DNA of 64,000 bases from NCBI GenBank assembly GCA_963765585.1, contig CAVXXB010000005.1:182402-246401 (forward strand), written 5' to 3'. Positions 373 to 63,600 of the stretch are shown one piece after another (positions within the stretch are counted from its first letter, which is position 1; the number at the start of each line of letters is the position of its first letter). The DNA is from Calditrichia bacterium (GTDB lineage Bacteria; Calditrichota; Calditrichia; JAJRVZ01). The notes under the pieces are model-generated. The model did not search any database. It was given only the letters and a program-made list of their open reading frames with translations, and had not been told where the DNA came from. Position numbers and translations under genes: made by a program.

Positions 373-437
373 GCAGTGTTCAAATTTGATAACATAATCC
401 TACCTTCCCGCGAAGGTGTAACGGGTTATGAATTTCA

Positions 438-590
438 GCCGGTCTCCTGACTTAAGCGTCACTCTACTCACCAGGCCTTCCCATTCTATATCTTAGAAAA
501 GTGGCCACCACAGGTTTTCGTCAGCTATTACAGTTGCGGGGCAGTGGCGGAATCTCACCGCGCTTCCCGAGCACTAAAACTCAGTCAATT
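438..590 (-). ncRNA. Cobalamin (AdoCbl/B12) riboswitch aptamer
   Basis: The reverse complement contains, in canonical order, GGGAAGCGCGGUGAGAUUCCGCCACUGCCCCGCAACUGUAA, the B12-box-like GGCCACU, GGGAAGGC, and the 3' element AAGUCAGGAGACCGGC. It lies in the 5' leader of a TonB-dependent receptor gene. Confidence 0.8.
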
Positions 591-666
591 AATTAACGCT
601 AAGTTACACGATTAAAAATAGTTTGGCAAAGGAAAATTTGATAAAAAGAAGATATCAAAGAGATTT

Positions 667-2390: not shown

Positions 2391-2470
2391 AGTATCCTGG
2401 ATCCTGCATCTTGTAACTTGTATCTTGTATCTTGAATCCAGCATCCAGCATCGCTCAGCATCCTACGTAT
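2391..2470. repeat. Degenerate heptamer tandem array, family H1 (GYATCCT / GCATCCA)
   Basis: The array reads gtatcct ggatcct gcatctt gtaactt gtatctt gtatctt gaatcca gcatcca gcatcgc, with period 7 over ~70 nt. It lies between the response-regulator stop and the peptidase start, and is homologous to the arrays at 12366 and 57386. Confidence 0.6.
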
Positions 2471-3173
2471 CAAACTGGTACCCCACACTGCGGATACTTT
2501 TAATATATTTTGGATTTGCGGGATCTTTCTCAAAATATTTCCGCAGGCGTGCGATAAAATTGTCAACAGTCCGCGTCTCGATGTCAGACGAGATCCCCCA
2601 GACATTTTCAAGCAGCACTTTGCGGGACACAATCTTACCTTTATGATCCACCAGATACTTTAAAACCATGGCTTCCCGGGGGGTCAGACGAAGTTCTTCA
2701 TGTTCGCCTTTGCATTGCAGATTCTCAAAATTGATCTCATTCTTTCCGAATATATACAGTGGGAGATCAACTGTTGCTTCCCGGTACCAGGCCTTTCGCT
2801 TCAACATCCCTTTAAGCCGTAATAACAATTCCTCAAGGTTGAATGGTTTTGTTATATAGTCATCTGCACCCGATTCCAATCCCTTTATTTTATCTTCGAC
2901 CCGGGTTCTGGCGGTTAGCATTAATATAGGCATTTGAGGATTGTTGATTCGCACCTGTCTGGCTACCTCAAATCCATCAAAATGAGGCAACATCACATCG
3001 AGGATGATCAGGTCAAATACTTCATTCTGGACGGCTTCAATGGCCTGTTTACCGTCTTGCACCCAGTGAACAGTGTACCCTTCTTCTCTCAGATTGTATT
3101 CAAGGCCGACTGCCAAAGATTCTTCATCTTCAACCAGCAGAATTTTGTGTTGCTCAATATTTTTACTGCTCAT
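2463..3173 (-). CDS. Two-component response regulator, OmpR family (receiver plus winged-helix)
   Basis: The receiver domain reads LLVEDEESLAVGL...DLIILDVMLP. The C-terminal trans_reg_C domain reads RLTPREAMVLKYL...IRSVGYQFDT. It overlaps the upstream kinase gene by 11 nt. Confidence 0.9.
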   Translation of the reverse strand: MSSKNIEQHKILLVEDEESLAVGLEYNLREEGYTVHWVQDGKQAIEAVQNEVFDLIILDVMLPHFDGFEVARQVRINNPQMPILMLTARTRVEDKIKGLESGADDYITKPFNLEELLLRLKGMLKRKAWYREATVDLPLYIFGKNEINFENLQCKGEHEELRLTPREAMVLKYLVDHKGKIVSRKVLLENVWGISSDIETRTVDNFIARLRKYFEKDPANPKYIKSIRSVGYQFDT

Positions 3174-12108: not shown

Positions 12109-12365
12109 ATGAATCTCCTTCGTTATAAAAAATGTGGAAGCATTAATGATTGAGAATAATTCGGAACTTGGAACTGGGTAATGGGCACATGGTTTTATTG
12201 CTTGGTCCAAAAAGTTCTCAGATAACAGGCCCAAGGCTCCAAATTTTTGACGAGTCATTCTGTCCCGGAACGGGATCCCATGGACAAAGACCTTTTTCCA
12301 AGAAGTACCTTTTAATCTCTATAGGGCCAAACCATGGTTCAGATAAAAGATACTGACAGAATGAC

Positions 12366-12475
12366 TTATCTCTATCCTGCATCCTGTATCCTGTAGCCTG
12401 CAACTTGTATCTGCATCCAGACTATCCAGTATCCAGCATCAAGTACCCAGCAACGAGTACCAACCTCACAGAGAG
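12366..12475. repeat. Degenerate heptamer tandem array, family H1
   Basis: The array reads tatcctg catcctg tatcctg tagcctg caacttg ... tatccag tatccag catcaag tacccag caacgag taccaac. Period 7 holds over ~110 nt in a divergent promoter region. Confidence 0.6.
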
Positions 12476-12620
12476 TGAATTTACCTATTTGAAAATTAAT
12501 TTAAAAAAATATTTCTAACAGTAAAAATCTGTGCTGCAATGCTCGAAATTGCCCAAGACTTGAGGATATGCTATATTTGAGATATATATATTTAGCTAAA
12601 AAAGTTGGAGGAATTTGAAT

Positions 12621-13706
12621 ATGAAACCGGGTATGGCGATGATCCATATTTACCGTTTCTTAAAAATTTTGTTGGGATTCATATTGGTTTTTTTGTTCAT
12701 TATGTTCATTCCATACTCTGTTCTCCCGGCGGCTGATAATGCGTTTAGTATAGAAGAGCGAAAACAGGTGCTAACAAAAGCAGGGGAATTATTAGCAAAT
12801 AACTACGTAGATCAATCTATTGGCGCGGCGTGTAAAATTATTCTTGAAGATGAAAGCGTTATGACACAATTGCTTGAAAATGCGCATCCGCGTTCCTTTA
12901 TAAAAGAATTGAACTCAAAATTACAAAGCGTTCACAATGATAAACATGTGCGTGTGACGTTTATTCCTCCGGAGGAACAAAGACTGGATGAAACCCAACC
13001 AGCAGTGTCACTCTTATTGCAGACAGCCGAAAAGCAAAGCAAAAATTTCGGATTTGAACGGGTAAAAGTTCAAACTGATAATGTAGGATATTTAAATCTA
13101 ACTTCTTTTCCACCGGCGGATCTTGCCCGTGGGACGCTCCGAAATACACTTGATTTTTTACAATTTTGCGATGCATTAATTATTGATTTGCGTGAAAATC
13201 GCGGCGGCAGTTTGGATATGGTGAAACTGCTGGCCGGATTTTTCTTTCCGGATTCCACTTTGTTCTCTTCCTACTATTGGCGCCGTGGTGATTATATTGA
13301 AAATTACTGGACTGCACCGGATTCATCAAGAACTAATTTTTGGCATGTTCCTGTCTTTATATTATTGAGTAATAAAACTTTTTCAGCAGCCGAGGATTTT
13401 GCATTTGGTATGCAAAGTAGAAAGCGGGCAACACTGATTGGTGAACAAACCGGCGGTGGTGCGAACCCGGGATACACATTTTCGCTAAACGAACAATTTA
13501 GTATTTTTATACCCACAGGGAGAGCGATTAGTCCGGTTACTGGTAATAACTGGGAAGCAAAAGGAATTGAGCCGGATATAAAAACGAGCGCCGGAAATGC
13601 CCTCTCCCTTGCTCTGGAACAGGCTGGACTAAAAGCCCGGACATACCGCCAAAAACGAAATATAGAATATATCGATAGACTATCAGAATATAGTCCACTA
13701 TCTTGA
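12621..13706 (+). CDS. S41-family peptidase (C-terminal processing / tail-specific protease-like), membrane-anchored
   Basis: The motifs are LIIDLRENRGGS and SNKTFSAAEDFAFGMQ, with an N-terminal TM helix. The start ATG is at 12621, with RBS GGAGGA at 12607-12612. Confidence 0.8.
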   Translation: MKPGMAMIHIYRFLKILLGFILVFLFIMFIPYSVLPAADNAFSIEERKQVLTKAGELLANNYVDQSIGAACKIILEDESVMTQLLENAHPRSFIKELNSKLQSVHNDKHVRVTFIPPEEQRLDETQPAVSLLLQTAEKQSKNFGFERVKVQTDNVGYLNLTSFPPADLARGTLRNTLDFLQFCDALIIDLRENRGGSLDMVKLLAGFFFPDSTLFSSYYWRRGDYIENYWTAPDSSRTNFWHVPVFILLSNKTFSAAEDFAFGMQSRKRATLIGEQTGGGANPGYTFSLNEQFSIFIPTGRAISPVTGNNWEAKGIEPDIKTSAGNALSLALEQAGLKARTYRQKRNIEYIDRLSEYSPLS

Positions 13707-38342: not shown

Positions 38343-38542
38343 CGGTATCTATTTAGATATTTCAAATTGTATTAGTCTGTGAGGATTTGAATAAATAAAT
38401 TAAAAATGTCCAAATCCAAATGACACAATTTCAATACACTTTATATTACTTAGCAGTATTACGATTGAAAATTGGGATTTGGGAGTTGATTTGTAATTTG
38501 TGCCTGGACATTAATCATTAAGCAGTTTCTGGTAGATAAAAT

Positions 38543-43683: not shown

Positions 43684-43836
43684 AAATCCTCAGCAATCCG
43701 CGTAATCCGCGTGCTATGGTAAAGTGATGAATGGCCCGCTGATCTCGCTGATTGAGCAGATTCTCGCCGATCTAAAAAATTAATTATACTTAAATCAGCG
43801 TAAATCCGTCTGATCTGTGTAATCTGCGTGCTAGTG
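43684..43836 (+). repeat. Dispersed intergenic repeat element, copy B (array, core with 18-codon mini-ORF, array)
   Basis: It reads ...caatccgcgtaatccgcgtgctatgg taaagtg ATGAATGGCCCGCTGATCTCGCTGATTGAGCAGATTCTCGCCGATCTAAAAAATTAA ... taaatcagcgtaaatccgtctgatctgtgtaatctgcgtgctagtgg. The mini-ORF 43727-43783 encodes MNGPLISLIEQILADLKN. Confidence 0.7.
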
Positions 43837-50593: not shown

Positions 50594-50888
50594 ATTATGA
50601 TTCTCCGTAATTCCTTGTTTATTTAGGTTTATGAATTTCATGTTGCAGCTCCCGGCTGCAATCAAAAAATAAAAGATTATACAAATCACATGAATTATTT
50701 AACCGCAATGACGCGAAGGAAATGCAAAGCGCACAAAGTTTTTTATTAATTTGAAGAATTATGAATTTTATCTTTGCGAATCTTGTGTTTTCTTTGCGGC
50801 TTAGCGGTAAATTTTTAAAGTCTTGGCTATAAACTTTTAACTAGCCGATAGCCTATTGCCAACTGCCAATAGCCACAAACTTACATCT

Positions 50889-51800
50889 TCAGCACATTAA
50901 TAGTATCGTATCCGTTACCGCCGATCCAAACACGCCAATCCCATCTCCCTCGATATCAAATAGCGGTTCATGGAGATTACCGTCCGGTTCCTGTACATTG
51001 GCCTGGGTATTATAAAAATGATAAAAATTTTTGTCTCCGGCATAAAGTATCAACCGATAATTGCCATAAAACCAGAATTGAAACCATGTTAATTCAATAA
51101 CAGAATTTCCGTCAATTTCATTTTCGGGCCGCGTCCACCTGGCTGAATATTGAAAGTCCTCAACCTTGGCGCCCTCATCCAATGCTTCCTGTATTTCAAA
51201 GCCAAATGGATTTTCATAGATAAATGATTCCACACTGGCTTCCAGAGAAGCGATTGAAAGCAGGAAAAAAGCAGAGTTTGGCGACTGGCTGTAATTAACA
51301 CGTGGGGAGATCAGTTGTCCGTTGTCATCCGTCTGGCGATAAAAAAGATCACCATAGATTGAATTTACCAGGTCTATTTCCAATCCCGCATCCGGTACTG
51401 TGGTTACTGATGATGCCTGTAACTGATTGCCGTCGATAACTGCACTAATGTTTATACGGTAACTGACGCCATTTGCAATGATCAGATCAGTCCCGGGATA
51501 TTCAAAACTTCCTTTGCCAGGATTATAAGATAATGGATAGATGTCGCCGTTATCCAGCTCAGTAATAGTTACTTCCGCTGTCCTGAGCGCAATTTCATCT
51601 TTTTTAATTTCCTGACCGATAGCAAAATTTCTGGTTATACGGATGTCATTCACCGGCCGATTTGGATATATATAGCCCTCTATTACTATTTTAGGTTCGT
51701 AGGTGCGTTCATCAACCGATACCGATGTTTTTCCACAGGCAAACAAGTAAAAACCCAGGGCTGCAATTAGCAGGTATTTGCAATCAAAGTATTTATTCAT
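50889..51800 (-). CDS. Hypothetical lipoprotein encoded downstream of a TonB-dependent receptor (DUF4249-like by context)
   Basis: The lipoprotein signal reads MNKYFDCKYLLIAALGFYLFACGK. The DUF4249 call is from gene context only. Confidence 0.4.
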   Translation of the reverse strand: MNKYFDCKYLLIAALGFYLFACGKTSVSVDERTYEPKIVIEGYIYPNRPVNDIRITRNFAIGQEIKKDEIALRTAEVTITELDNGDIYPLSYNPGKGSFEYPGTDLIIANGVSYRINISAVIDGNQLQASSVTTVPDAGLEIDLVNSIYGDLFYRQTDDNGQLISPRVNYSQSPNSAFFLLSIASLEASVESFIYENPFGFEIQEALDEGAKVEDFQYSARWTRPENEIDGNSVIELTWFQFWFYGNYRLILYAGDKNFYHFYNTQANVQEPDGNLHEPLFDIEGDGIGVFGSAVTDTILLMC

Positions 51801-54566: not shown

Positions 54567-55988
54567 ATGGTGAAAAATAATATATTACATCAGTCTAATT
54601 GGCTGTTAATTCTCATCGTATGTGTATTCATGCAAAAAAGTGGGTATGCACAATCTCCCGATCCGTCTGAGACTGTTTATCTGACAATGGAAGAAGCCAT
54701 CTCCATGGCATTGACGCAAAATAATCAGGTTAAGGCCAGTGAATACGGTGTGCTTCAGGCGAAATGGAATTACCGGGCGGCCTGGACCCGGATGTTACCG
54801 TCAGTAAATTTGACATCGCGTTATACCTGGATTGATGACAGCACATTTGCCCTGCGTGATTTTAGCAGATATTTTCAGGATCCTACTTCTCCATTTGGCT
54901 TCAATATTCCACAGACAGTCTTTCAGGAATCTTTTTATACCTCCATTGATGTAAATCTGCAGCTTTTTAATGCAAATTTATTTTATAACCTTTTTGTCTC
55001 AGAAGCCCAGGAAGAGGCAGCCGAATTCCAGGATGAAAGTACCCGCAGAAATATAATATTTCTGGCACTCAGTACTTATCTCAGTGTTTTGAAAAATGAG
55101 GAAATATTAAAATTACAAAGGGAATATCTGGATCTTTCTTTGCTCAATTATGAAAAAGCAGAGCGTATGCAGTCTGCCGGCCGGTACTCAAAATCAGAAG
55201 CGCTGCGCTGGAAAGTAGATTACCAACGGCAAAAGGGAATTGTGGTAGATAGCGAAAATCAGGTGCGCAGTGCCCATGCCCGGCTTTGTCGTGTAGTAAA
55301 TCTGGATATGAGAACGGCTTTAAAAATTGATCCGCAGATTCCTGAGCGTATTCTGGATGAAGGCAAACGTGTGGCCGCATTGTCTGATGAAGAAGTGATT
55401 AAAATGATTGATATTGATCAGGAAACACTTATTGCGGCAAATGCCGCATTATCGGCTGCCAGGAAGAATGAAGACATAAGCCGTTTGATGTATCAAAGCT
55501 CGCGGGCCAATTTTATGCCAAATCTGTCTCTGAATTATTCCTACGGATGGCGTGAAAATGAAACGGCAAATCTGGATGACTATTCACCGCAGTTATTAAT
55601 GGTTAATTTTAGTATCCCGTTATTTACCAGTTTTAATAACGTCTCAAAACTAAAATCCAGCTATTATGGGTATCAGCAGAGTCAGGAAAATTTCCAGGAT
55701 CAATTACAAAATGTGAGATTTATTTTGACCGAGACGGTTAATAAAATAATCAACCAGAAAACGCAATTGGAAATTTCAAAAGTAAATATTGAATACAATG
55801 ATCGGAATTACCGGATTGTTGAACAGCAAAAAGAACAGGGCCTGGTTTCCAATATTGATTTTATCGATGCCAAACTAAATCTACAGGATGCCAAACTTCA
55901 GGATATCAATACAAATTATGATTTTATCTCAGGAATCATTGAATTGTACTATTTGCTTGGTAAAATTAATGAAACGGTGCTCGAATAG
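54567..55988 (+). CDS. Outer-membrane efflux protein (TolC/OEP family)
   Basis: It has a signal peptide and two OEP repeats (LTMEEAISMALTQNNQVKASEYGVLQAKWNYRAAW...). Confidence 0.85.
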   Translation: MVKNNILHQSNWLLILIVCVFMQKSGYAQSPDPSETVYLTMEEAISMALTQNNQVKASEYGVLQAKWNYRAAWTRMLPSVNLTSRYTWIDDSTFALRDFSRYFQDPTSPFGFNIPQTVFQESFYTSIDVNLQLFNANLFYNLFVSEAQEEAAEFQDESTRRNIIFLALSTYLSVLKNEEILKLQREYLDLSLLNYEKAERMQSAGRYSKSEALRWKVDYQRQKGIVVDSENQVRSAHARLCRVVNLDMRTALKIDPQIPERILDEGKRVAALSDEEVIKMIDIDQETLIAANAALSAARKNEDISRLMYQSSRANFMPNLSLNYSYGWRENETANLDDYSPQLLMVNFSIPLFTSFNNVSKLKSSYYGYQQSQENFQDQLQNVRFILTETVNKIINQKTQLEISKVNIEYNDRNYRIVEQQKEQGLVSNIDFIDAKLNLQDAKLQDINTNYDFISGIIELYYLLGKINETVLE

Positions 55989-56006: not shown

Positions 56007-57128
56007 ATGAGGTTTTATAAAATGAAAAATATTATTCAACGCTTTCTATTTCCCGTATTGATGGTTGCCATATATTATTCGTGTGCACCTTCGGAATCAG
56101 AGTCCGACTCGACCGATTCGGCCCCAGCGATTAAAAATTCAATTTCGGTTGAAGCCAGGGTCGTGCGTGCAAAATTCGTGGAGCAAAATCTGTCTCTCAC
56201 TGGTGTATTAAAACCACTTAGAGCCGTCGATCTGGTCGCCGAAGTTTCAGGTAAAATTACACGGGTAAATAAACGGGTTGGCGATACGGTCTCAAAAACC
56301 GATATCATTGCCCGGATAGATGACAAGGTTCCCCTGAGCAATTATCAACATGCCCAGGCACAGGTATTGTCTGCTGAGGCAAATTTGCAAATTGCCAAAT
56401 TGAATTTAAAAAGTGATGAAGACTTATTTAATAACGGCGATATCTCAGAATTAGAACATCAGAATTCAATGTTGACGGTTAAAACGGCGGAAGCAAATCA
56501 TCAATCGGCTCTAGCCAGTCTCAGTCAATTTGAAAAGGCCTGGCAGGATACGCGAATTATTTCCCCAATTGCCGGTGTCATATCACGTAAACATATAAAT
56601 GCCGGAACGATGGTAATGATCAACATGCCCTTATTTCGCGTAGTAGATCTGAGTACCCTTAAACTGGAAGTGGGTGTTCCCCAGGAAATAATCAGCCGGG
56701 TAAGGAAAGGTAACCAGGCGCAGATCGAAATTTCAGGTCTTGCCGGTCGGAAATTTCCAGGTACAGTTGAAAGAATTTCACCGGAAGCCGATGAGAAGAC
56801 CGGCGCATTTAATGTTGAGATCCTGGTAAAAAATACCAGGGATAATCTCATCAAAGCCGGAATGACAGCAAAGTTGGACGTCACGATACGCACAGACAAT
56901 AACCAGATTGTAGTTCCCGATCATGCGATCGTTTTCAGGAAAAATGAAAAATTTGTGTATAAAATAAAAAATAAAATCGCGTTTCTGGAGCAAATCGATA
57001 CGGGTGAAACCATAGGTGGCCAGGTAGTGATTGCCGGAGGAGTGAGTGAAGGTGATACCATCGTCGTCGTCGGAATGAAAAATCTGGGCGTCGAAACCCC
57101 TGTGTGGATCGAGGAGTTGTATGAGTAG
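56007..57128 (+). CDS. RND efflux periplasmic adaptor (membrane-fusion protein, HlyD-like)
   Basis: It has a biotin-lipoyl-like hairpin and beta-barrel regions (SLTGVLKPLRAVDLVAEVSGKITRVNKRVGDTVSKTDIIARID). An alternative start lies at 56022. Confidence 0.85.
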   Translation: MRFYKMKNIIQRFLFPVLMVAIYYSCAPSESESDSTDSAPAIKNSISVEARVVRAKFVEQNLSLTGVLKPLRAVDLVAEVSGKITRVNKRVGDTVSKTDIIARIDDKVPLSNYQHAQAQVLSAEANLQIAKLNLKSDEDLFNNGDISELEHQNSMLTVKTAEANHQSALASLSQFEKAWQDTRIISPIAGVISRKHINAGTMVMINMPLFRVVDLSTLKLEVGVPQEIISRVRKGNQAQIEISGLAGRKFPGTVERISPEADEKTGAFNVEILVKNTRDNLIKAGMTAKLDVTIRTDNNQIVVPDHAIVFRKNEKFVYKIKNKIAFLEQIDTGETIGGQVVIAGGVSEGDTIVVVGMKNLGVETPVWIEELYE

Positions 57129-57260
57129 GGCTCGGCACTAGGCACTGGGTACTCGGTACTCGGTGCTCGTCGCTAGGCACTCGGCACTGGGATAAATAAT
57201 TTGAGATGAGAGATTAGAGATTAGAGATTAGAAATAGGCAATAGGCGATGGGTGATTGTC
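57129..57260. repeat. Degenerate heptamer arrays directly after the MFP stop: family H2 (CTCGGCA/CTAGGCA/CTGGGTA, x8) then a GAGATTA-type array
   Basis: The first array reads ctcggca ctaggca ctgggta ctcggta ctcggtg ctcgtcg ctaggca ctcggca ctgggat. The second reads gagatta gagatta gagatta gaaatag gcaatag gcgatgg gtgattg. Confidence 0.65.
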
Positions 57261-57385
57261 GCGTCGCAAATCATTTCAATATATAATCCCTAATTAATTC
57301 TGCGTCTTTGCCAGAAATAAACGATATTGGCTTCATGTCTCGGCTTAAAGGTCTATACAAGATGACTTTAAATTTATCAACTTAC

Positions 57386-57465
57386 ATCCTGTGTCCTGTA
57401 TCTTGCATCAAGCATCCAGGATCCAGAAACCAGCGCCGAGTGCCCGGTACCGAGAAACAAGAACT
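57386..57465. repeat. Heptamer array of family H1, followed by an inverted partial copy of the H2 motif
   Basis: The H1 part reads acatcct gtgtcct gtatctt gcatcaa gcatcca ggatcca gaaacca. The tail gcgccgagtgcccggtaccgag is the reverse complement of the ctcggtaccgggcactcggcgc-like H2 motif. Confidence 0.6.
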
Positions 57466-57502
57466 ATAATTTTTAGCACGATCAAACTTCAAGGACAACA
57501 CC

Positions 57503-60500
57503 ATGTCAATCGCTGAATTTTCGGTAAAAAAACCGGTTTTGGTAAACTTGTTAATGATTGGATTGTTTATTGCCGGTGGCATCTCTCTTTTTCAATTACC
57601 GACAGAGTTAAATCCCGAGATAAATTTCAACTGGGTATTCATCACGGTGATTTACCCGGGAGCCGCACCCCATGACACAGAAAGTCTGATTGTCGATCCC
57701 ATTGAAGCAGAAGTCAAGGATATTGATGATATAGAAGAAATTCAGTCCAATGCCGGTGAAGGTTTTGGCTTTATAATGGTAAAGTTCAAGGACATGTCGG
57801 ATGCTGAGTTTCGCGAGCATTTTCTTGATCTCAAGGCGGAAATTGATAAAGTAAAACTTCCCGATGAAGCCGAGGATCCGTTGATTGAAGCTTTTGACAG
57901 CGGTGATTTTCTTCCGGTTATCACCATCAACATGTCCTACTCCATCCCTGACAATAATGCACAAAAAATTGCGGATGAGTTGGAAGAGGACCTGACAGAT
58001 CTTACCGGAGTTGCTAAAGTGCAGGTTTCCGGTCTGGCTGAACGTGAGATCTGGATTGAAGTGGACCCGGTAAGAATGAATGCCCTTGGGGTCACATTTG
58101 ATGAAATTGTGATGGCGTTAAAAGTCCGGAATTTAAATGTTCCCGGGGGTAATATTACATTTGGCAAAACGGAGTATTTAATACGCTCATTGGGCGAATA
58201 TCAATCGCTTTCTGAGATCGGACAAACAATTGTCCGGACATCCGGAGGTAACGAATTTATAAAGATTAAAGATGTCGCCGAAGTAAAAGACCGGCGGAAG
58301 GAAATGGTGATTTTATCCCGTCTGAATGGCGAGCGATCCATAACATTTTCAATATCAAAACAAAGTGATGTTAATTCCATTGATGTGATTGACCGTATTA
58401 AAGCCCTGGTAGATGAATATCAACGTGAAAGTCCCGATGGCATTGAGATTAGTTATTCCAATGACAATTCTACCATGATTACCCGTAGCATTAATGTTTT
58501 GCGGAACAATGCCCTAACCGGTATGATACTTATTGTACTTGTCCTGTATTTTTTCCTTGGTAAAGCCAATGCCGGACTGGCATTGCTGGGAATACCTATA
58601 TCATTCTTCATCACATTTATACTGATGAATATGTTAGGGTACAGTCTAAACGGCACCACATTATTTGCCCTGGTTATGGTGCTGGGTATCATTGTGGATG
58701 ATGCGATTATTGTGATTGAAAATTGTCACAGATATCGCATGATGGGTTTTAATTCTTTTGAATCAGCCATTCAAGGCACCCGGGAAGTAGTGGCACCAAT
58801 TCTATCCTCGATCGGAACGAATATTGCCGCATTTCTGCCATTGATTCTGCTTCCGGGAATCATGGGTAAGTTTATGCGCATTATCCCGATTGTCTTTTCG
58901 CTGGCATTAGTCGCCTCATTGTTTGAGGCATTTTTTCTCTTGCCTTCACATTATGCCGACTGGACGATCAAATCAAAAATATACAAAAAGGGTGAAAAGC
59001 CGTTCTATAAAAACTTACGCAGACACTATAGTCATCTATTAATTAGAATATTACGATTTCGCTATGTGGTATTAGGTGCTATGATTATTATATTTCTCGG
59101 ATCGTTTATGATTATTCCACTGGTTGGGGTTGAGCTGTTTGGCGAGGAAGATTTTGATCAGTTTAGAGTGCTGATCCGGCTTCCTGAAGGCAGCAGCCTG
59201 GATGAGACGGATCGTGTTATTAAAAAATTTGAAGCCGTTGCCAGGGAATTACCTCAATCTCAGATCCGGGCGATTATCACAAATGTGGGTTTATTACAAG
59301 GCAATGAGGAATGGCTTACACGAAAAAGTGTTGGCCAGCTGAATATTTGAGCTGGAACCGGTTGAAAAGCGGGATGTGAGCACCGACGAGATAATTACGC
59401 TTATGCGTGAATATACAAAGAATATCAGCGGACCAATTGCCATCGAGTTTGAAAAAATATCAGGTGGCCCTCCTGTGGGGAAGCCCATAGCCGTAAAGGT
59501 GCAGGGTAAATATCTTACGGATATCAAACAGGCATCTCTGGCGTTACAGGATTCATTGCGATCCATGTTGGGAACGTTTGATATTAGCGATGATTTTCCA
59601 CCCGGTAAACAGGAAATCAGAATAAAAGTCGATGAAGATAAAGCAGCCATGTATGGTTTCAATACTCAATATGTTGCATTGAATGTTCGCTACGCGTTTG
59701 ACGGGGTCGAAGCGACTGAATTCCGCGAAGGGGATGATGAAATAGATGTGATCGTGAAGTATAACAAGGAGTATCGTTCATCGGTGGATGATGTGTTAAA
59801 TCTGAGATTAACAAATCAGACCGGACAAACCGTGGCATTACGGGATATGGTGACTTTCTCAATCGAAGCCGGTCCCGATGAAATAAGACGTTTTGACCAG
59901 AAACGAACCATCATTGTATCGGGTCAGATAGATGACCAGAAGACAACTCTTGATGCCATTAACGATAGATTAACAGATATCTTTCCCGAAATGGAGAATA
60001 AATTTCCTGGTATTAAGTTTAAGATTGGCGGACAATATGAAGAATTTGTAAATATCTTTTCCAACATCGGCCCGTTGTTTCTTTTAAGTTTAATTTTAAT
60101 ATTTTTGATTTTGGGTACACAATTCAATTCATACTCACAGCCATTGGTTATCTTAACCACGGTGCCATTTGCTCTGATTGGCGCGCTGTTTGGATTATTG
60201 ATATCCAACAATCCGTTCAGTGTGATTGCCCTGTACGGGTTTGTAGCTCTGGCGGGAATTGTGGTAAATGATGCCATTGTGATGATGACTTTTATAAATA
60301 ATAGACGCAAGGACAGTCCACTGAGTGTATTTAAAATATGGCGCAGTATTGTCAATAGCGGGCGTTTGCGACTGAGACCGATCATACTGACCTCTTTAAC
60401 CACCATATCCGGTCTGATCCCCATGGCATTTGGTATTGGCGGGTCATCAGCCATGTGGTCGCCTCTGGCCAATGTGATCCTGTTTGGATTGCTGTTTGCC

Positions 60501-60602
60501 ACGGTGCTAACATTGCTGGTGATACCCAGTTTCATGGCCATTCTGGATGATATTAAGGGAAGCCGGAAGAAGATACGCCGTAGTTTAATGGCGGAAATGT
60601 AG
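57503..60602 (+). CDS. RND-family efflux permease (AcrB/HAE1-like); frame break at T-run 59346-59348
   Basis: ORFs 57503-59350 and 59376-60602 are contiguous AcrB-like halves. The second frame is open from 59343 as IFELEPVEKRDVSTDEIITL.... Removing one T at 59346-59348 joins the two into ~1030 aa. Confidence 0.8.
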
Positions 60603-60741: not shown

Positions 60742-62459
60742 TTACTTCTGTGTTACCATAAAATCCCGCAGTCGGTTTAAAGTAAAGGCAAACTCGTGAG
60801 ATCTGAATCCGGCAAAATTTGGTGAAATTTTTTGGTCAATTATATCAATTCCAAATTCATCAATATCATTTGATATGTGCTCAGATATTTCCCTCAACGT
60901 GTTTTTTCCGTTCATATACTTTTTTGCATAATTAATGGCAAAGCCCAGGGCCTCTTGTTTGAGAAAGTTCAATTAACTGCTCCAGATCTGTCAGATCAAT
61001 TTCATGCTGCCCAAAATGTATTCTGTTTGTTTCTTTGGCATAAATCCCGATCTTACCATACTGATTCTCTGGATTTATTGATTCGGCCAGTGGAATTCGT
61101 GCTGTTATGTTTACAGATTCTCCGGTATTTTCTGTTTCGCGGTTTAGTGGAGAATTTTGCACAATTATTTTTACTTGTTCAGTCACATCAATGGCCTGAT
61201 AATTTTTCAGTTGAATCACATGATCTGCTACATCAAAATAATCGCCAATGCCCCCCAATACCAAGACAGTGCTGACACCCTGATTTTCATAGAGTTGACG
61301 GACATTATCTATGTAGCTTGAAATCGGTTCATCACACTTCCGGACGAGTTGTTGCATCTTTTGATCTCTGATCATAAAGTTTGTTGCACAGGTATCTTCA
61401 TCCATTAATAAGACCTTTGCCCCGCTTTCCAGCGCTTCAATAATTCCGGCAGCCTGGGAGGTACTGCCACTGGCATTTTCTGTTGAAAAATTAACTGTGT
61501 TTTTTAAGAACGGAAGATTATTTATAAATGATGATATGTTTGTATTCGTGATGTATCTTCCACTGTAATGCTCTGATCTTGACTGTATCAGGATCTGAAA
61601 CACAATATTCCCTGCCATCTCCGGGAATATGGTTATATATACCCATAGAGATCGAGTCGAGTAAAGTAGATTTGCCATGATATCCACCGCCAGTTATTAA
61701 TGTAACACCGGCCGGTATGCCCATACCGGTTATCCTTCCTGCGTGCGGCAGTGAAAGTTCAACCTGATATTTTTCAGGTGAGATAAAAGGTACTGCAGAT
61801 GCAGAATCGAGAGGCTGATGGTTGGCCCCACTTTTGCGGGGTAATATGGCCTGGTTTTTTATAAATGCCACTAATCCATGATCATGAAGTTGATGTCTAA
61901 GATCTTCAGTATCCTCAGCTACATCCAGGTGCAAGTCCAGTTCCTTCTGACTAATGTTTTTTGCAAGTAAAGTGTGATTCACAATTAGTGGTAATTCCTT
62001 AAAAAGCATATCCTTTGCAATTTCAGCATTGATTGATCTGCCTGAAGCCGGCAAGCCGATAAAACAACGTAGTTCAATCATGTTTTTACTTAATATCACA
62101 CTACTGCGCTCTAAAACCGCCTGACCCGGTTGGTTGATTGTGATGACTCCGCTAAAACCAGTGCCTCTGAGGCCCTTACCATGTTTTTGACAAGCGGTAT
62201 AAAATCTCCTGGTGAGATAATCCCTAAATGCGATTTTCCTTATTTTTGAATTTATGTCTGCCGATAAAATATCTTTTTCATTGCGGTTGACATGTATCCG
62301 GTAAATTCCGGTATGGGGAGGGGCATAGGGATCCTTGGGGATTTGTTCAAAAACGAGGCCATAATACTCGAGTTTGTAAGTTCCTTTTAGGTCCTGATAG
62401 GAACCATAGTCTTTACCATTAATCGAATCTAGTTTTTTTAAAATGATATCGCTATCCAT
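60742..62459 (-). CDS. P-loop ATPase of the 'ABC-ATPase' (PF09818-like) family; two frame breaks (near 61600 and 60950)
   Basis: Three overlapping minus-strand ORFs carry the Walker A motif ITGGGYHGKSTLLDSI. The combined length is ~560 aa, which matches that family. The family call is from memory. Confidence 0.45.
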
Positions 62460-63278: not shown

Positions 63279-63600
63279 TTTAAAGATTAACCACAGAGAG
63301 CACTGAGAAGACACAGAGTTCGCTAAGAAAGAATAAAATAATATAAAATCCGCGTAAATCCGTGTTATCCGTGTAATCCGCGTTCTATTGACAAACTAGC
63401 ATAACCCAGTTGAATTTTTAAAGATTAATCACAGAGAGCACTGAGAAGGCACAGAGTCCGCAGAGAATACATATTTAATTCTTTATAAAACTGCAATGCG
63501 CGGAATGGTCTCAGACCGTTCCCTGCATTAGGTGATTATAAAAATTACTTAAATTATACCGCGAGAATCCGTGTAATCCGTGTAATCCGCGTTCTATTGG
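63279..63600. repeat. Tandemly duplicated composite repeat: CACAGAGAGCACTGAGAAG module plus 9-mer (AATCCGCGT) array ending TTCTATTGG
   Basis: Unit 1 spans 63279-63390 and unit 2 spans 63413-63600, with a ~100-nt insertion. The CACAGAGARCACTGAGA module also occurs at 36252-36274. Confidence 0.7.

Follow-up and report, generated by a model that had tools for sequence, protein, structure and literature searches.

Why should the adaptor and transporter genes of an efflux operon be separated by several hundred nucleotides filled with short tandem repeats, and do these repeats act on the expression of the pump? The question is raised by a locus in a 64-kb stretch of DNA (here called the window) from an uncultivated member of the FCB group, a host in which type IX secretion sorting domains are found and whose nearest named homologues are Calditrichota MAGs, the window itself containing no marker genes. 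The efflux operon is opened on the + strand by the gene for a TolC-like outer-membrane factor (OEP; 54567–55988; Pfam PF02321, E 2e-54), which is followed by a membrane-fusion (periplasmic adaptor) gene, MFP (56007–57128; Pfam HlyD_D23/HlyD_3), with a TAG stop codon at 57126–57128, and by the gene for the RND inner-membrane pump (57503–60602; Pfam ACR_tran, positions 1–604 and 654–1020). The homologues of the MFP protein carry the name RND efflux adaptor subunit, and no close relatives were found when reference genomes were scanned with this protein. The RND gene is read as two ORFs (57503–59350 and 59376–60602) because of a frameshift near 59335–59345; a tblastn comparison with the intact 1043-aa orthologue from a related locus, L003, put the change of frame at 59316–59341, which reflects either indel errors in the assembly or a decaying pump. 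A frameshift is likewise apparent in an ABC-ATPase gene, in the region 60750–62400.

Arrays and predicted fold of the spacer

The MFP–RND spacer is 374 nt long (57129–57502), not 375 nt as stated in the first-pass annotation, whose description of three heptamer arrays was otherwise borne out. Array 1, the G-rich “H2” array with CTCGGYA/CTRGGYA units (57131–57188, + strand; TRF and period scan), begins 2 nt past the MFP stop and has a period of 7, 8.3 copies, 78% matches and the consensus CTCGGCA by TRF, in agreement with the eight units that had been noted there. Array 2, built from ATTAGAG/GAGATTA units (57199–57258, +), was delimited to 57199–57232 by TRF (4.9 copies, 88% matches) and to 57190–57267 by the period scan. 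It contains the GAGATTA triplet that had also been reported, its units running GAGATGA, GAGATTA (three times), GAAATAG, GCAATAG, GCGATGG and GTGATTG, with a drift to AATAGGC/GATGGGT units up to about 57258. The A+T-rich, non-repetitive core of the spacer (57259–57385) has no recognisable feature. It is followed by array 3, the C-rich “H1” array (57386–57434, +; period scan, where a period-7 run spans 57375–57451, and fold), with the units CATCCTG, TGTCCTG, TATCTTG, CATCAAG, CATCCAG, GATCCAG and AAACCAG, an order (CCTG, CTTG, CAAG, CCAG) that makes the array a local quasi-palindrome (hairpin at about 57389–57426). The tail of array 3 (CGCCGAG, TGCCCGG and TACCGAG; 57435–57455, +; inverted repeats I1–I4) consists, as had been claimed, of reverse complements of H2 units. 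At the junction, a G-rich array thus lies right after MFP, and a complementary C-rich array ends 47 nt before the RND start. These last 47 nt form the RND leader (57456–57502, +), which aligns partially with orthologues, with the motif A-CAA-GAACT, and holds a Shine-Dalgarno-like AAGGA at 57491–57495, 7 nt before the RND ATG; equivalent motifs are present in orthologues.

The inverted arrangement is visible as a 26-nt repeat (57145–57170 versus 57429–57454) with 77% complementarity, and the long-range stem that the first-pass annotation had envisaged around some 240 nt is recovered by folding, where a duplex of about 20 bp (57167–57190 with 57430–57453, spanning 57167–57453 on the + strand) is predicted to enclose 239 nt. 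In the thermodynamic ensemble its 20 pairs have probabilities of 0.5–1.0, ten of them being consecutive (57176–57185/57435–57444), and the spacer fold loses 19 kcal/mol when pairing over distances greater than 120 nt is disallowed. The duplex of H2 with H1 was calculated at −56.5 kcal/mol, compared with −39.4 ± 4.6 for shuffles, 0 of 500 of which were as good (z = −3.7). The folding z-score of the whole spacer is −3.46, with a fold nearly as good on the antisense strand (z = −2.3); array 1 folded alone gives −26.2 kcal/mol in the sense and −14.8 in the antisense direction. In the prediction, array 1 is divided between two structures, its 5′ half forming a local hairpin (about 57141–57167) and its 3′ half (57167–57190) serving as the 5′ arm of the long-range stem, of which the tail of array 3 forms the 3′ arm.

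Several known kinds of element were sought in the spacer and rejected. It matches no known Rfam family, the sole hit in the window being a cobalamin riboswitch (420–593, minus strand), and a permissive Rfam scan of 56900–57700 gave sub-threshold matches only, all downstream of the arrays, one wholly within the RND ORF and the other (57470–57594) starting in the RND leader. A hidden small gene was discarded, the + strand ORFs of the spacer having at most 53 aa and running through the arrays, and the longest being unrelated to PF05635. For a mobile element or MITE, the core (57259–57385) would be the candidate, and it recurs neither elsewhere in the window nor in the spacers of the orthologues. 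REP/BIME elements were dismissed because only array-to-array matches were obtained and the units vary within and between arrays; no RAYT (IS200/IS605-like) transposase was hit among the Pfam-scanned ORFs of the 64-kb window.

Transcription signals in the spacer, in the form of a terminator after MFP combined with a promoter for RND, or of a phase-variable promoter whose spacing depends on the repeats, would provide another account, which we regard as quite improbable. A TATAAT hexamer lies just past the last array (57465–57470), and relatives that carry opposite-strand genes at this junction must re-initiate transcription for RND. On inspection, however, the hexamer has no −35 partner, and in 57129–57502 there was neither a + strand sigma-70-like promoter, by a consensus scan that may not represent the promoter type of the host, nor a + strand site resembling an intrinsic terminator. 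A phase-variable simple-sequence repeat was rejected as well, since the arrays are imperfect (78–88% self-identical), which makes them poor slippage switches, and no promoter-like site overlaps them.

Heptamer arrays beyond the spacer

The arrays are not specific to the efflux operon. When the 64 kb of the window were scanned at an identity of at least 0.64 over 28 nt, period 7 was the sole enriched tandem period, with 11 runs compared with 0–5 for each other period from 3 to 15, and first-order Markov shuffles gave a mean of 0.6 period-7 runs (maximum 3). Arrays of the same kind occur at no fewer than seven further intergenic sites. One, a G-rich-type array of TACTCGG units (664–702, +; TRF and period scan), adjoins the cobalamin riboswitch, where a second H2-type copy had already been noticed. 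An array of ATCCTG, ATCTTG and ATCCAG units (2384–2463, +) abuts the stop of a response-regulator gene (2463–3173, minus strand), and one of TAGCCAA-type units (50832–50882, +) lies 6 nt past the stop of a DUF4249 gene (50889–51800, minus strand), each being G-rich on the sense strand of its gene. Upstream of a peptidase S41 gene (12615–13706), a G-rich array (12157–12193) and C-rich arrays (12359–12461) face one another on the + strand (12157–12461), so that the window holds two convergent pairs (57131/57386 and 12157/12359); the arrays at 2384–2463 and 12359–12461 have the same build as array 3. Arrays that are G-rich in the sense direction begin 2, 0 and 6 nt past the stops at 57128, 2463 and 50889, respectively, and one exception in the window to this proximity is found at 38464–38501.

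Short tandemly repeated repetitive (STRR) heptamers of cyanobacteria are attributed to Mazel et al. (1990) and to Vioque (1997). An STRR heptamer hairpin occupies the hupS–hupL intercistronic spacer of Nostoc, Anabaena and Lyngbya, and its function is unexplained, transcript stability or translational coupling having been proposed (PMC2670836). The arrays of the window resemble STRR in their 7-nt tandem units, their dispersal between genes, the inverted hairpin layout and the position within an operon, but differ in the units (CTCGGYA, ATCCWGY and GAGATTA as opposed to CCCCAGT, TTGGTCA and CAACAGT), in the host, which belongs to the FCB group and not to the cyanobacteria, and in arms that are 239 nt apart. 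In Xanthomonas and Nostoc, Rehm et al. (2015) found strongly intergenic GGGAATC and GGGGA(C/T)T heptamers, the G-rich array lying near its 5′ neighbouring ORF, with 70–75 convergent pairs per Xanthomonas genome (PMC4692102). The site of these repeats is kept between relatives, length and sequence are very variable, and a function was not found (PMC4692102). The intergenic bias, the G-rich 5′ proximity, the convergent pairs and the conserved site with fast change are shared by the window, whereas the GGGAATC-type units can form G-quadruplexes and the window units have no regular G-tracts; the GGGATTY arrays of three homologous loci (L007, L133 and L005) resemble the GGGAATC type. TAACTGA repeats were described by MacGregor (2015) in Beggiatoaceae, Cyanobacteria and some Bacteroidetes (PMC4679880). 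Here the likeness lies in intergenic heptamers with a patchy spread across phyla, mixed with other heptamers, and in contigs that often break inside them; in ‘Maribeggiatoa’, however, the TAACTGA repeats are mostly single forward arrays a few nt before start codons, as against a convergent pair 47 nt away in the window.

None of the published units (CCCCAGT, TTGGTCA, CAACAGT, GGGAATC, GGGGATT and TAACTGA) is matched by the window arrays, and the spacer is therefore classed as a new member of the heptamer class and not as one of the named repeats. It shows what characterises that class, namely a 7-nt unit, dispersal, non-coding location with G-rich 5′ proximity, convergent pairs, and a kept site with rapid change.

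The distribution of the units is wide: at least 119 stretches, belonging to many phyla, contain ATCCTGYATCCTGYATCCTG, where about 4 would be expected by chance according to our own estimate, and ATCCTGY arrays occur in more than 10 phyla. They also have a polarity. A complementary stretch lies 5′ of the ATCCTG-type array in 35 instances and 3′ in 0, and for arrays of any unit there are 39 G-to-C pairs versus 3 C-to-G pairs, i.e., complementary arrays are almost always purine-rich first and pyrimidine-rich second, regardless of the direction of the neighbouring genes. Relative to co-directional neighbour genes, the ATCCTG-type arrays of the cross-phylum sample are oriented 18 sense and 18 antisense, which argues against a strand-specific RNA signal and, together with the antisense fold of the spacer, fits an origin at the DNA level without an RNA function.

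The same count bears on the idea that the arrays are a platform for a periodic single-strand RNA-binding protein (of the cold-shock, S1 or CsrA type), or else serve as anti-Shine-Dalgarno decoys, and would in this way set RND translation. By inspection, ATCCTG units could pair with ribosome-binding sites of the AGGA type, to which they are complementary. Their complement, CAGGAT, resembles CsrA sites. Proteins of this sort have been proposed for heptamers just upstream of start codons (MacGregor 2015, PMC4679880). Such a platform should have a strand preference, which the equal numbers of sense and antisense arrays do not display; the unit sequences are wholly different between orthologous spacers; and the window arrays stop short of the RND start codon by the length of the leader instead of abutting it. 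We consider this explanation very improbable.

Homologous junctions and four-helix-bundle genes

Comparison with homologous operons gave a divided answer to the claim that so large a spacer is atypical. In eleven homologous loci with MFP proteins 45–52% identical, the spacers measure only 19–67 nt and have no arrays, so the size stands out as had been supposed; what did not hold was the association with the efflux operon as such, and among relatives it is the distant ones that are short and array-free, the window's own clade having kept the arrays. This clade comprises, in the MFP tree, the window and the loci L003, L004, L002 and L005, and in it the arrays persist at the junction with MFP proteins down to about 55% identity. 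In L002–L007, all the period-7 arrays detected in a locus (one, or two in L004) fall in the MFP–RND spacer, and the other intergenic regions of these loci, which extend up to 21 kb, are free of arrays at the detection threshold. In the window, L002, L003 and L007, a distance of 40–71 nt separates the end of the C-rich array from the RND start, and the array of L005, which is G/T-rich, lies about 40 nt from that start.

The sequences themselves are not preserved. L003 and L004 have MFP genes with 97.8% identical DNA, yet of their spacers (272 and 391 nt) no more than the final 71 nt and one 58-nt piece are common to both, for which reason a conserved regulatory RNA is not supported. At the junction, array sequence and length thus change much more rapidly than the genes on either side. 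Among the orthologous spacers compared, the long-range stem is present only in the window and in L007; its absence from the closer L002, L003, L004 and L005 means that a function, if there is one, cannot depend on this one pairing, and a conserved stem was rejected on these grounds, the alignable sequences being too few for covariation. Elsewhere the junction is empty or contains an opposite-strand PIN toxin pair, a TetR-like gene or the gene for a TPR protein of 509 aa. Because it tolerates inserted genes, some of them on the opposite strand (as in L008), a separate promoter probably serves RND in some of the relatives at least.

A rival view is that slippage-prone repeats and other insertions have accumulated neutrally at a permissive junction, the stem being a by-product of the generation of convergent pairs with no selected effect on the pump. 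The hypervariability of the spacer between near-identical relatives, the lack of conservation of the stem, the variety of other junction contents, the independence of array orientation from gene direction and the featureless spacer core are all in its favour. It accounts less readily for the persistence of arrays at this junction throughout the clade and not in the other intergenic regions of the same loci, or for the similar distance at which the C-rich arrays end before RND, and we place it among the possible explanations, on the less likely side.

In two homologous operons the same junction has a further content. L007 and L133 carry a small four-helix-bundle gene of the PF05635 family (“23S rRNA IVS protein”) between inverted arrays at the MFP–RND junction, with GGGATTY units where the window has CTCGGYA and ATCCWGY. 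PF05635-family genes are bracketed by arrays in like manner at ten plasmid loci of Cyanobacteria and Gemmatimonadota. Four-helix-bundle genes lie exactly in the loops of array pairs, often in the middle of an operon. When arrays were called with a strict detector, the cross-phylum loci gave no significant proximity of these genes to arrays (p = 0.07), and the association is clear only by flank-complementarity tests on a sample selected by protein. Among the papers searched, none links PF05635 proteins to heptamer repeats. Since the same bracket encloses a four-helix-bundle gene in two homologous operons, the window spacer can be described as a bracket without cargo, having the inverted G-rich and C-rich arrays and no PF05635 ORF.

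The 23S rRNA IVS, an insert excised by RNase III, provides a parallel to such an arrangement. Its long inverted-flank stem with a small ORF (S23p/PF05635) in the loop is mirrored in L007 and L133 and in the ten plasmid loci; the window differs from it in that its bracket holds no ORF, its site is an mRNA spacer and its stems are heptamer arrays. The spacer could accordingly be a relic, in which a bracketed PF05635 gene was once inserted and then lost in the lineage of the window, leaving the bracket and a degenerate loop. The array–gene–array order at the same junction in L007 and L133, the occurrence of empty and filled brackets of one unit on a single Nostoc plasmid, and a window loop (239 nt) much longer than the median of 25 nt for empty pairs would agree with such a history. 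But no trace of the gene was detected in the window spacer or in L002–L005 (tblastn at E <= 10, and jackhmmer), the units of L007 and L133 are different ones, and these two loci fall outside the window's clade in an MFP tree whose deep nodes are unresolved, so that independent insertions are equally possible. Such a relic seems unlikely to us. The same doubt attaches to a more general proposal, in which convergent pairs would form the stems of an IVS-like cassette found across phyla, with a four-helix-bundle gene of the S23p/Avd family as its cargo. The protein would have a part in making, maintaining or moving the arrays, and empty brackets such as the window spacer would represent copies without cargo by which processing as double-stranded RNA is still imposed between the two cistrons; if it were true, the 35-year-old STRR puzzle would be tied to one protein family.

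Origin of the arrays and their possible effect on the mRNA

The explanation towards which we lean, with some reserve, is that heptamer arrays of the dispersed STRR/GGGAATC/TAACTGA class make up the spacer, set in the standard convergent pair, and that they arose by fold-back and slippage and form a duplex that may affect the mRNA. The arrays would arise and change by slipped-strand and fold-back errors of replication, with no selection on the sequence of the units as such. If transcription reads through, both local hairpins together with the duplex of about 20 bp would turn the MFP–RND junction into a site of double-stranded RNA, which could act as a barrier to 3′-exonucleases or as a processing site of the RNase III type. 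The TolC–MFP part of the mRNA may thereby be separated in its fate from the RND part, with RND being translated from its own Shine-Dalgarno sequence, presumably without coupling to MFP. Such an effect of the duplex on the mRNA is a plausible proposal.

In enterobacteria, REP hairpins between cistrons stabilise the upstream mRNA, e.g., in malE–malF. By analogy, this stabilisation could serve as a working model for the action of the spacer, the likeness being that REP/BIME elements are also dispersed extragenic hairpin repeats, often located just past stops and inside operons. They differ in that REP are conserved palindromes of about 35 nt tied to RAYT transposases and the arms in the window are variable tandem heptamers. 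A precedent is the corresponding role suggested for the STRR hairpin of the Nostoc hupS–hupL spacer (PMC2670836).

For the efflux operon itself the meaning is modest, its adaptor and transporter genes being split by fast-evolving repeats that would at most decouple their expression, with no sign that a regulator is dedicated to them. Of wider interest is what the comparison set shows of an old and unexplained class of repeats, namely the cross-phylum ATCCTGY arrays, their polarity and the four-helix-bundle genes in the loops. Should the same regularities be borne out across whole genomes, two handles on how the arrays originate and whether they have a role would be available, a mutational polarity and a candidate protein partner.

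Heptamer arrays of the efflux operon and the window

The efflux operon comprises the OEP/TolC gene (54567-55988), the MFP gene for the periplasmic adaptor (56007-57128) and the RND gene for the inner-membrane pump (57503-60602), all on the plus strand, with an MFP–RND spacer of 374 nt. Three heptamer arrays lie in this spacer: two were located with Tandem Repeats Finder at 57131-57188 (period 7, 8.3 copies, consensus CTCGGCA) and 57199-57232 (period 7, 4.9 copies, ATTAGAG), and a period scan added a third at 57375-57451, whose units read, in order, CATCCTG, TGTCCTG, TATCTTG, CATCAAG, CATCCAG, GATCCAG and AAACCAG, followed by CGCCGAG, TGCCCGG and TACCGAG. The closing three are reverse-complementary to first-array units. 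The arrays and the inverted motif pair described in the first-pass annotation are thus confirmed, the pair extending over 26-35 nt with 71-77% complementarity. The potential long-range stem was likewise recovered in the RNA fold, where pairing of 57167-57190 with 57430-57453 is predicted with probabilities near 1. Disallowing long-range pairs cost the fold 19 kcal/mol, the inter-array duplex was better than 500 of 500 shuffles, and a local hairpin was predicted within each array.

The RND gene itself is present as two ORFs (615 and 408 aa) with a single frameshift near 59335-59345 (region 59316-59376), whereas its orthologue in the homologous efflux-operon locus L003 is intact (1043 aa). The minus-strand ABC_ATPase gene (PF09818) at 60754-62396 occupies three frames, i.e., it has two frameshifts, by reference to an intact 554-aa orthologue in L003. 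Together these frameshifts suggest either that the genes are decaying or that the window assembly has indel errors; any such errors could also alter exact repeat counts.

Such arrays are not confined to the efflux operon: the same period-7 class occurs at other window sites (664-702, 1019-1064, 2384-2463, 12157-12193, 12359-12461, 38464-38501 and 50832-50882), nearly all intergenic. Of the tandem periods from 3 to 15, only 7 was enriched in the 64-kb window: it gave 11 runs, each of the others 0-5, and shuffled sequence 0.6. Read in the direction of the preceding gene, G-rich arrays start just past three stop codons, i.e., 2 nt past that of the MFP gene, 0 nt past that of a response regulator (2463-3173) and 6 nt past that of a DUF4249 gene (50889-51800), and C-rich arrays lie ahead of the gene that follows. 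In the 12157/12359 pair the G-rich array comes before the C-rich one, as in the spacer, and the three ATCCTG-type window arrays have a common build, [ATCCTG]n-[ATCTTG]m-[ATCCAG]k, which forms a local quasi-palindrome. This part of the genome holds many arrays of the kind, the spacer cluster being one.

Other elements of the window were also noted. The 9-mer AATCCG(C/T)GT occurs in 12 copies against 1.08 expected, in tandem three times at 63347-63383 and 63566-63592 and twice at 43695-43712; both threefold sites are part of a duplicated segment of ~100 nt (TTTTTAAAGATTAAYCACAGAGAGCACTGAGAAGRCACAGAGT..., ~63280-63395 and ~63420-63600). At 420-593 the minus strand carries a cobalamin riboswitch (Rfam RF00174, 96.8 bits), which by its strand controls the gene to its left, below 420, and not the ORFs at 849-1932 with which the first-pass annotation had paired it. 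Those adjacent minus-strand ORFs, at 1387-1932 (weak Peptidase_C39_2 match) and 849-1349 (type IX secretion sorting domain), could be a single gene split by a stop or frameshift.

Heptamer repeats are known as STRRs from heterocystous cyanobacteria, as GGGAATC/GGGGATT from Xanthomonas and Nostoc (PMC4692102) and as TAACTGA from Beggiatoaceae, Cyanobacteria and Bacteroidetes (PMC4679880). Rehm et al. found the GGGAATC/GGGGATT type biased to intergenic DNA, with G-rich arrays near the 5′ neighbouring ORF and 70-75 convergent pairs (a G-rich array followed by a complementary C-rich one) per Xanthomonas genome; the intergenic site is retained while length and sequence change rapidly, and a function was not identified (PMC4692102). 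MacGregor described arrays of mixed heptamers with contig breaks within them, and put forward protein partners speculatively (PMC4679880). STRR hairpins also occupy the hupS–hupL gap, where a role in transcript stability or translational coupling was proposed (PMC2670836). The spacer agrees with this class in every structural respect, the published unit sequences being the exception, and it is very probably an STRR-type heptamer-array cluster in convergent-pair form.

The MFP–RND junction in homologous operons

Homologous operons were drawn from metagenomes and MAGs. Within the window's clade (L003, L002, the window and L004) the spacer measures 272-391 nt and always holds arrays, as does the 112-nt spacer of L005, which groups with this clade. 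Among more distant homologues, 11 loci have array-free spacers of 19-67 nt, four have spacers of 117-171 nt with arrays solely in L152 (117 nt), and seven distinct loci have spacers of 582-1842 nt with inserted genes. Compared with these 11 short spacers, 374 nt is long for the operon family; within the window's clade, arrays at the junction are the rule. In L002-L007 (loci up to 21 kb) all detected period-7 arrays fall in the MFP–RND spacer, one in each and two in L004.

As arrays are found in all clade spacers, the junction has long carried them in this clade. Unit sequences vary among orthologous spacers (TTGGTCC, AACCTGG, TTGGGAT, ATCCCGA); the MFP genes of L003 and L004 are 97.8% identical, yet all that their spacers have in common is the last 71 nt and one 58-nt piece, and the long-range stem is confined to the window and L007 among the spacers compared, so neither sequence nor specific pairing is conserved. 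Arrays are retained at the junction within the clade, with quick turnover. The main rival to an effect on RNA is that no effect of the arrays is under selection.

The junction is also a hot spot for inserted genes in this operon family (L008, L129, L140, L131, L136, L154). Inserts, e.g., at L008:11147-11786, L129:4097-5626 and L140:928 onward, include an opposite-strand PIN toxin-antitoxin pair, a 509-aa TPR protein, a TetR-like gene and a PF05635 gene, and some measure 1.5-1.8 kb. A metagenome contig with a 72%-identical MFP gene (L001:2878-2969) stops 92 nt past the stop codon in a repeat-rich spacer, identical to L004 over that stretch, which is consistent with assemblies breaking in heptamer arrays. 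A 24-nt inverted repeat in the L004 spacer (1432-1500; TGTCATTCAGCAGGAATCTTCCCG / CGAGAAGATCCCTACTGGATGACA), with a related copy in that of L002 (2309-2370; 89% over 36 nt), may be a small hairpin element separate from the arrays.

Pair polarity and bracketed four-helix-bundle genes

An exact scan for ATCCTGYATCCTGYATCCTG, with one genome per species, returned at least 119 stretches versus ~4 expected by chance on our own estimate. The matches listed include Bacteroidota, Acidobacteriota, Chloroflexota, Planctomycetota, Verrucomicrobiota, Nitrospirota, Desulfobacterota, Gemmatimonadota, Gallionella, Paenibacillus, Acetobacter and others; among them, ATCCTG(C/T) tandem arrays (L010-L128) span more than 10 phyla, often at multiple loci per genome and together with many other heptamer units. 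Of 117 listed ATCCTG arrays for which both flanks were available, 35 had a complementary CAGGAT-type stretch no more than 200 nt away in the 5′ direction, and none had one in the 3′ direction. Adjacent complementary pairs of any unit were G-rich-then-C-rich in 39 listed cases versus 3 in reverse, and 19 versus 1 when ATCCTG arrays were left out. Gene calls at these loci are crude, stop-free arrays lengthening spurious ORFs so that 49 of 133 arrays appeared "inside" one; by such calls, listed arrays read as C-rich had the nearer gene on the 3′ side in 43 cases versus 19, and co-directional neighbours showed no strand preference (18 sense, 18 antisense). Therefore, polarity is a property of the DNA element and not of a transcript, which argues against a strand-specific RNA signal. 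Convergent pairs were already known for GGGAATC in Xanthomonas; the rule of G-rich (purine-rich) 5′ and C-rich 3′, which holds irrespective of how neighbouring genes are oriented, appears to be general.

At the L007 (11117-11627) and L133 (1190-1660) junctions the order is MFP stop, G-rich array, PF05635 gene, complementary C-rich array and RND start, the enclosed gene encoding a 119-aa four-helix-bundle "23S rRNA intervening sequence protein". Homologues appeared in loci picked solely for ATCCTG arrays (L012, L031 with two copies, L096; weaker in L029, L032, L093 and L104). A tblastn search of 72,556 plasmids with this protein gave 46 records, nearly all from cyanobacteria known for STRRs, plus Gemmatirosa. 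Ten plasmid loci (L162-L171), from cyanobacteria and Gemmatimonadota, were compared, picked by the protein alone: seven (L162, L166-L171) have a G-rich array 5′ of the gene and its complement immediately 3′ of the stop codon, L165 has direct arrays on both sides, and L163 and L164 have a single-sided array or weaker pair. In duplex energy between 90 nt upstream and 90 nt downstream, 7 of 16 PF05635-type genes surpassed the best of 104 control genes. Over a 49-kb stretch of one Nostoc plasmid the PF05635 gene ranked first among 50 annotated genes for flank complementarity, and an empty array pair with the same unit as the filled bracket lies 6 kb away. Several bracketed genes sit inside operons (cas6–cas4, HlyD–ABC, MFP–RND). 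A literature search found no paper tying PF05635 genes to heptamer-array brackets. The window spacer has the bracket, but a search there detected no PF05635 gene; it is the structural equivalent of brackets that enclose four-helix-bundle genes elsewhere.

Proposed origin and effect of the spacer arrays

The spacer arrays would arise through slippage and fold-back errors. In self-folding, G-rich strands beat C-rich ones by 5-11 kcal/mol via G-U pairs, which suggests that fold-back priming on the nascent G-rich strand could yield both the pairs and their polarity.

An RNA-duplex effect of the spacer, suggested by the predicted fold, is a tentative and rather doubtful proposal; the combined statement of heptamer-array class and RNA-duplex effect we hold to be slightly on the probable side. 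On read-through, the local hairpins and a duplex of ~20 bp would form a double-stranded RNA site, which could stop 3′ exonucleases or undergo RNase III-type cutting. Such a block or cleavage would split the TolC–MFP part of the message from the RND part, and translation of RND would then rely on an AAGGA site of its own at 57491-57495.
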